IMG/VR virus record: IMGVR_UViG_2663763286_000012
Span: 1-5,048 of that record
From: a virus
Taxonomy: Duplodnaviria; Heunggongvirae; Uroviricota; Caudoviricetes
Length of the DNA: 5,048 nt
Direction: 5' to 3' (one strand)
Shown here piece after piece: positions 4,505 through 4,588 of the stretch; the first letter of the stretch is position 1, and every line of letters starts with the position of its first letter. The position numbers and the translations under genes are program-made. The notes under the pieces were generated by a model that searched no databases, was not told the DNA's origin, and saw only the letters and a list, made by a program, of their open reading frames with translations.

Positions 4505-4523
4505 TAAATACAAAGCGTTATAA
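4505..4523. promoter_or_regulatory. Operator-like site upstream of pL (distal OL site)
   Basis: TAAATACAAAGCGTTATAA, matching the site at 3742-3760 in 15 of 19 positions. Confidence 0.4.
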
Positions 4524-4552
4524 AAAACTAATTATATTTAGAACATTTTGTA

Positions 4553-4588
4553 TTGACCCAATAAAGTACAAATCGTACTATTTAGCCA
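4553..4588 (+). promoter_or_regulatory. pL-like promoter (-35 TTGACC, 17-bp spacer, -10 TACTAT) with overlapping operator (OL1-like); transcript start near A4588
   Basis: TTGACC at 4553-4558, 17 bp, TACTAT at 4576-4581. Operator 19-mer AAAGTACAAATCGTACTAT at 4563-4581. Downstream ATCAGCAGGACG...CCACCATGAAGGTGA resembles the lambda pL transcript start from memory. Confidence 0.7.

Follow-up and report, generated by a model that had tools for sequence, protein, structure and literature searches.

What is the intergenic DNA that follows the repressor gene of this prophage, and what would it control? The stretch of DNA analysed (5,048 nucleotides, hereafter the window) is the early region of a lambdoid prophage, set in the orientation opposite to that of the lambda map. 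A previous sequence-only reading took positions 4505-4588 as the leftward early promoter pL with its operators (OL). This reading agrees with where the site lies, which way it faces, which operators it contains and what leader follows it, and sequence comparisons make it very probable that we are dealing with pL/OL from a lambdoid prophage with the immunity type of the Stx1/Stx2 'Sakai-type' phages, related to Salmonella phage L. The following genes and signals precede the site in the window:

144-413, minus strand: small ORF
410-1786, minus strand: DnaB-like helicase gene
1783-2730, minus strand: O-like replication gene
2733-3008, minus strand: 91-codon ORF
3028-3321, minus strand: lambda-type cII (Pfam Phage_CII, E = 1e-48)
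3441-3656, minus strand: cro, 71 codons, HTH_3, divergent from cI
3768-4427, plus strand: cI repressor, with Pfam domains HTH_3 and Peptidase_S24
4458-4479, plus strand: intrinsic terminator after cI, AACCCGACCTTAGCGTCGGGTT followed by a T-run (terminator scan)

The site is found about 80-160 bp beyond the stop of the repressor gene (cI ends at 4427) and beyond the terminator. It lies on the same strand as cI and points away from it, toward N as judged from relatives; an N-family gene is located within about 300-530 bp in phage Dewey and in ten prophages encoding an identical cI. The terminator, which separates the cI transcript from OL/pL, does not vary among 10 related prophages; its HK620 equivalent, tIMM, is annotated in the same place. 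A scan of the whole window against Rfam at gathering thresholds gave zero matches, and the window is thus devoid of curated RNA families.

The start of cI deserves a comment. In database annotations it is set at ATG 3732 (231 aa), a choice by which OR3 and the presumed PRM fall within the coding sequence. A start at ATG 3768 or 3774 is more plausible. A -10-like TAATAA at 3755-3760 would make the cI mRNA leaderless or nearly so, as at lambda PRM.

Promoter and leader elements identified at the site are as follows:

4553-4558, plus strand: pL -35 hexamer TTGACC, aligned with TTGACA of lambda pL
4576-4581, plus strand: pL -10 hexamer TACTAT, invariant in relatives
4588, plus strand: putative transcription start, the A of CATCAGCAGG, 7 nt past the -10 and aligned with lambda 35582
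4621-4651, plus strand: nutL, assigned by identity to the lambda leader
4621-4629, plus strand: boxA GGCTCTTAA, with one change (the first base is C in lambda)
4637-4651, plus strand: boxB hairpin GCCCTGAAGAAGGGC, present in both the minimum-energy and the centroid folds

The promoter TTGACC-17-TACTAT had been described as near-consensus and directed into nutL. Both hexamers are in place, separated by the 17-nt spacer CAATAAAGTACAAATCG, which falls in the 16-18 bp range of sigma-70 promoters, and they point away from cI into the nutL leader. The near-consensus label is overstated, because only 9 of the 12 consensus positions match, as in lambda pL, the hexamers of which are of about equal quality. 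Promoter matches of 9/12 quality are not enriched in the window (three found, 5.6 expected from shuffled sequences), and the pL hexamers alone are therefore weak evidence. An alternative -35, TTGTAT at 4549-4554, was discarded for its 21-nt spacer. Position 4558, with which the -35 ends, is variable: TTGACC in the window corresponds to TTGACT in phage Dewey and in all ten prophages with identical cI, and TTGACC is found again in AP005153 and VT2-Sakai. Neither C nor T matches the consensus A.

Transcription would start at A4588, since this base aligns with lambda coordinate 35582, which we take to be the mapped pL start. The segment from C4587 to A4667 is identical at 78 of 81 positions to the lambda pL leader starting with CATCAGCAGGACG, boxA and boxB included; Nutl is annotated at 35518-35534 in the lambda record NC_001416. 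The predicted early transcript accordingly includes a nutL made of boxA and of the boxB hairpin. Downstream of about +13 the nut/N module changes from relative to relative (lambda-type, P22-type or other), and this is the usual mosaic joint.

The similarity to the lambda leader is abruptly interrupted. Homology to lambda and Dewey ends at 4667, and from 4668 onwards it is replaced by homology to copies of an insertion sequence (IS) residing in unrelated chromosomal contexts:

4668-5048, plus strand: left end of an IS3-family element, with inverted repeat starting TGAACCGCCCCGG (homology switch, Pfam, RefSeq)
4722-5048, plus strand, same orientation as pL: orfA of the IS, HTH_Tnp_1 (Pfam)

The element, labelled "IS3 family transposase" in RefSeq and presumably IS629/IS1203-like, begins 16 nt past boxB. 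Neither the 5,426 complete E. coli genomes searched nor the species representatives of GTDB contain the nutL-IS junction, and the ten contigs with identical cI are all free of the IS; judged from these sequences, the insertion at nutL is a private event. By its position the IS cuts pL and nutL off from N, so that a pL transcript would run into the IS and not directly into N. No N gene is found within the 5,048-base window, which ends inside the IS; N may lie beyond the element, about 1.3 kb long, or may have been lost. An ATTCA(A/C)A-like sequence is present 4-6 nt upstream of the IS left end in three other copies and in the window (4654-4667). A target preference of the IS for ATTCAAA was not trusted, as the three loci had been picked as longest BLAST matches, a choice which selects for upstream similarity.

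The insertion raises the question of whether the site still serves its early operon. The site could be pL/OL by descent and have lost its early-operon role through the IS, and possibly through decay beyond the window; the prophage would then be defective, and pL would at most read into the IS. We rate this at slightly less than an even chance. The position of the IS, the lack of N in the window and the absence of the junction from the complete E. coli genomes speak for it, as does the observation that, in the set of prophages with identical cI, the window alone has TTGACC and not TTGACT. Against it, the window retains intact cI, cro, cII, O-like and DnaB-like genes, together with nutL and the six operators, and N may sit just past the IS. 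A loss of this kind is compatible with the assignment of the site to pL/OL, because it concerns the output of pL and not its identity. The presence of the IS after nutL predicts in any case a prophage impaired in N-dependent early expression.

Assignment to pL/OL is also supported by the operators. The window was scanned with a symmetrised 17-bp matrix, for which the only input was the six operators that others had annotated in AP005153. As threshold we used 13.1, below which the best score remained in 95% of 1,000 simulated sequences. The operators, to which no strand is assigned, are:

4564-4580, no strand: OL1, AAGTACAAATCGTACTA, a perfect AGTAC-N5-GTACT palindrome, with the best matrix score in the window, 21.0
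4539-4555, no strand: OL2, TAGAACATTTTGTATTG, left arm AGAAC, matrix score 16.3
4506-4522, no strand: OL3, AAATACAAAGCGTTATA, right arm GTTAT a weak match, matrix score 15.6
3684-3700, no strand: OR1, matrix score 18.4, orthologous to an annotated AP005153 operator
3717-3733, no strand: OR2, matrix score 11.2, orthologous to an annotated AP005153 operator
3743-3759, no strand: OR3, matrix score 15.5, orthologous to an annotated AP005153 operator

OR (3684-3759) sits between the divergent cro and cI genes. OL and OR thus host three partly symmetric operators each, about 17 bp long and sharing one consensus, and the three pseudo-palindromic OL operators have the common core A(A/G)TAC-N5-GTA(C/T)T. 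At OL, the operators overlap the promoter core. OL1 fills the spacer and five of the six bases of the -10, its right arm supplying the TACT of the hexamer, and OL2 extends 3 bp into the -35. The operator copy expected across the spacer and the -10 is therefore OL1. The second copy, expected 40 bp upstream, is OL3. Its centre (4514) precedes the first base of the -35 by 39 bp, and the OL1 and OL3 centres are 58 bp apart. Two sites, OL3 and OR2, match weakly, each having two mismatches to the core, and the score of OR2 stays below the 13.1 threshold.

The half-site TTTGTATT, said to abut the -35, is found at 4547-4554 and runs into the hexamer; it is not isolated, but forms the right arm of OL2, itself a complete operator. 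It is improbable that the region contains two operators and an isolated half-site beside the -35 instead of three full operators. The left arm of OL2, AGAAC, does depart from the AGTAC/AATAC core, and a lone AATAC half-site devoid of a partner arm does exist at the -35 of pR (3705-3709), but the 17-mer 4539-4555 has the third best score in the window, above OL3, and fits ARTAC-N5-GTAYT with one mismatch; OL2 is moreover annotated in AP005153, has a perfect core in phage L and is invariant in 11 sequences. Three full operators at OL remain the preferred reading.

The proposal that OL mirrors the OR layout holds in part. OL1 and OR1 are 90% reverse-complementary over 20 nt, and the outer operators span a similar distance, 58 bp at OL and 59 bp at OR. 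The middle operators are differently spaced: centres are separated by 25 bp (OL1-OL2) and 33 bp (OL2-OL3) at OL, by 33 bp (OR1-OR2) and 26 bp (OR2-OR3) at OR. The 33-bp gap between OR1 and OR2, together with the lone AATAC at the pR -35, is conserved in AP005153 and phage L; in lambda and HK620 the corresponding spacing is 24-25 bp.

Operator-like sequences are by far more frequent in the window than in shuffled sequences. The motif AATACAAA occurs four times on both strands (0.27 expected), and ARTAC-N5-GTAYT, with at most one mismatch, occurs five times (0.23 expected); neither number was reached in any of 200 shuffles. Four of the five ARTAC-N5-GTAYT matches are located in OR or OL. The five top matrix scores in the window belong, in decreasing order, to OL1, OR1, OL2, OL3 and OR3. 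That the site is an A+T-rich intergenic stretch in which promoter-like hexamers and short repeats occur by chance is next to inconceivable: shuffled sequences do contain 9/12 promoter matches at least as often as the window does, A+T content is high in the region, and a non-conserved A+T-rich 17-mer reaches a score of 10.35 between OL3 and OL2, but chance is effectively refuted by a motif enrichment exceeding all 200 shuffles, by top five matrix matches falling exactly in OR and OL, by a conservation spanning E. coli and Salmonella phages, and by the -35, -10 and +1 aligning by position with those of lambda pL.

Conservation was monitored over columns 4500-4581 in 11 sequences, the window and ten E. 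coli prophage loci encoding an identical cI. Twelve of the 82 columns vary, and both the -10 and the 30 half-site columns are spared (hypergeometric P = 0.0025); variable columns correspond to central bases of OL1 and OL3, to inter-operator DNA and to the final -35 base. The half-sites of OL, six in all, are consequently unchanged in the ten other prophages. In OL3 only a central base varies, and OL2 is fully invariant in the 11 sequences. The sequences compared are close relatives and the power of the test is modest, and we consider the result supportive of the operators rather than decisive.

Two additional candidate operators were rejected. The 17-mer between OL3 and OL2 (4523-4539, score 10.35) is non-palindromic, has a score below the random threshold and falls in the most variable stretch. 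The sequence AATTCCATTTGTATT, at the cII stop (3032-3046), could be a seventh operator. It overlaps the last cII codons and departs from the core at one position; its score (11.7) is lower than 13.1, and it is probably there by chance. Relative to lambda cII, AATTCCATTTGTATT presumably arises by synonymous differences.

The overall organization of lambda pL/OL (NC_001416, 35518-35651) is reproduced at the site. In both, pL is located downstream of cI and oriented toward N, three 17-bp operators are present, hexamers are 17 bp apart, OL1 lies between and over the hexamers and OL2 over the -35. OL1 and OL2 centres are 24 bp apart in lambda and 25 bp here, the leader and nutL are nearly the same, and the C-terminal domain of the repressor is essentially identical. 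In contrast, lambda operators are of the TATCACCGC type, and not of the A(A/G)TAC-N5-GTA(C/T)T type found here, and the DNA-binding domains of the two repressors are unrelated in specificity. The OL2-OL3 spacing is 20 bp in lambda and 33 bp here. In the window, rexAB is missing between cI and OL, and OL is 0.9 kb from OR, compared with about 2.4 kb in lambda; N, finally, is displaced by the IS.

A closer relationship links the site to the Stx1-converting phage AP005153, to the Stx2 phage II AP005154 and to VT2-Sakai, which have the same immunity type, the same 25 and 33 bp spacings and the hexamers TTGACC and TACTAT. The AP005153 operators AAGTACATATCGTACTA, TAGAACAAATTGTATTG and AAATACAAAGCGTTGTA are orthologous to OL1, OL2 and OL3, respectively, which differ from their counterparts in the three phages by 1, 2 and 1 nt; taking the operators together, differences to AP005153 amount to 0-2 nt and fall outside the half-site cores. 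AP005153, AP005154 and VT2-Sakai are unlike the window in having about 1.5 kb of extra ORFs between cI and OL, and a nut/N module of another type. Their operators are annotated as putative, and not as demonstrated. The GenBank record of an Stx phage labels the leftward promoter, confusingly, 'maintenance promoter for CI'.

HK620 and the phages L and SEN22 are more distant. They share with the site the half-site family AATAC/AGTAC ... GTATT, the start region TTTAGCCATCAGCAGGACG and a repressor helix TQGxIGH(W/Y). The HK620 record annotates pL, OL1-3, tIMM and nutL at homologous positions, and the OL2 counterpart of phage L, AAGTACATTTTGTATTG, is a perfect-core operator. However, their repressors are 35-46% identical to that of the window, and nut/N modules differ; these phages and the one analysed here are probably heteroimmune. 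HK620 differs also for its regular operator spacings (25 and 22 bp). The block formed by the -35, OL1, the -10 and TTTAGCCATCAGCAGGACG is conserved in Dewey, a deposited complete phage genome hosting a 98% identical copy, and in E212, YYZ-2008, 2B8, VT2-Sakai, the Stx1 phage, the Salmonella phages L and SEN22, and HK620.

The proteins which would act on the operators point to the same group. Identity to the AP005153 proteins reaches 100% for Cro and 97% for cI, and the immunity specificity should hence be the same. Near-identical cI, Cro and operators place the prophage in the Sakai-type Stx-phage immunity group, and every defining feature of a lambdoid pL/OL and of this group that can be read from DNA is present. 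The cI protein is a chimera, in which an N-terminal HTH_3 domain of the phage L/HK620 type, with the helix TQGGIGHW, is joined to a C-terminal domain matching that of lambda cI. Residues from about 84 to 218 correspond to the lambda cI C-terminal domain with two substitutions, and the lambda residues QAGMF, GNSMT and FKKL are kept. The best PDB match is lambda repressor, 3bdn (E = 2e-96). The motif TQG(G/A)(I/V)GH(W/Y) is common to cI, to its Cro (TQGAIGHW), to the SEN22 (phage L-type) repressor and to the HK620 repressor. We take it to be the recognition helix, and a common helix would fit the common AATAC/AGTAC half-site of these phages.

Lambda cI binds with pairwise cooperativity, forms octamers which mediate looping and undergoes RecA-stimulated self-cleavage. 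Given its lambda-like C-terminal domain, the cI encoded in the window is likely to do the same: neighbouring dimers would cooperate in pairs, octamers would loop OL to OR over 880 bp, and RecA would stimulate self-cleavage. Lambda-type properties are thus predicted on operators that are not of the lambda type. Repression of pL by the resident cI, and by Cro, would follow a simple scheme. In the lysogen, cI dimers bound to OL1 and OL2, with centres 25 bp apart, would exclude RNA polymerase. The centres of OL and OR, between which looping is likely, are 880 bp apart. Upon SOS induction cI would be cleaved, and transcription would proceed from about A4588 through nutL. In intact relatives expression of N and of the leftward early genes would follow, and Cro, through its TQGAIGHW helix, would later turn pL down. 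In the copy analysed here, the transcript would enter the IS3-family element 16 nt past boxB. A search of the accessible literature retrieved no experimental studies of this operator type, but only of other immunity types (933W, BAA2326, CP-933P).

A more speculative view is that the site is unusual in two separate respects. The IS3-family transposase gene, located just after an SOS-derepressible, nut-containing promoter, could have its transcription coupled to induction. The switch might also be wired unlike that of lambda, in spite of the lambda C-terminal domain of its repressor, the 25- and 33-bp spacings of the middle operators resulting in a different logic of cooperativity and PRM activation at OL and OR. 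This view seems to us unlikely.

The element is in itself already known. It belongs to a textbook class, and orthologous operators and promoter are annotated as putative in AP005153 and AP005154. Its significance beyond annotation is small. The precise placing of pL, OL1-3 and nutL provides, on the other hand, a usable regulatory map for a very common immunity type. Of the 5,426 complete E. coli genomes, 206 have the full module and 1,420 a partial one; in the assembly collection, 1,409 indexed blocks contain the exact cI. In Sakai-type Stx phages the cI is 97% identical.

Repeats of a different kind are present elsewhere in the window. Sequences of the CATGTGCGG type, repeated with a 12-bp period (four copies of a 50-nt family), are found at 2173-2315, inside the O-like replication gene. 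They are probably origin iterons, which also encode a repetitive His/Ala-rich stretch of the protein.
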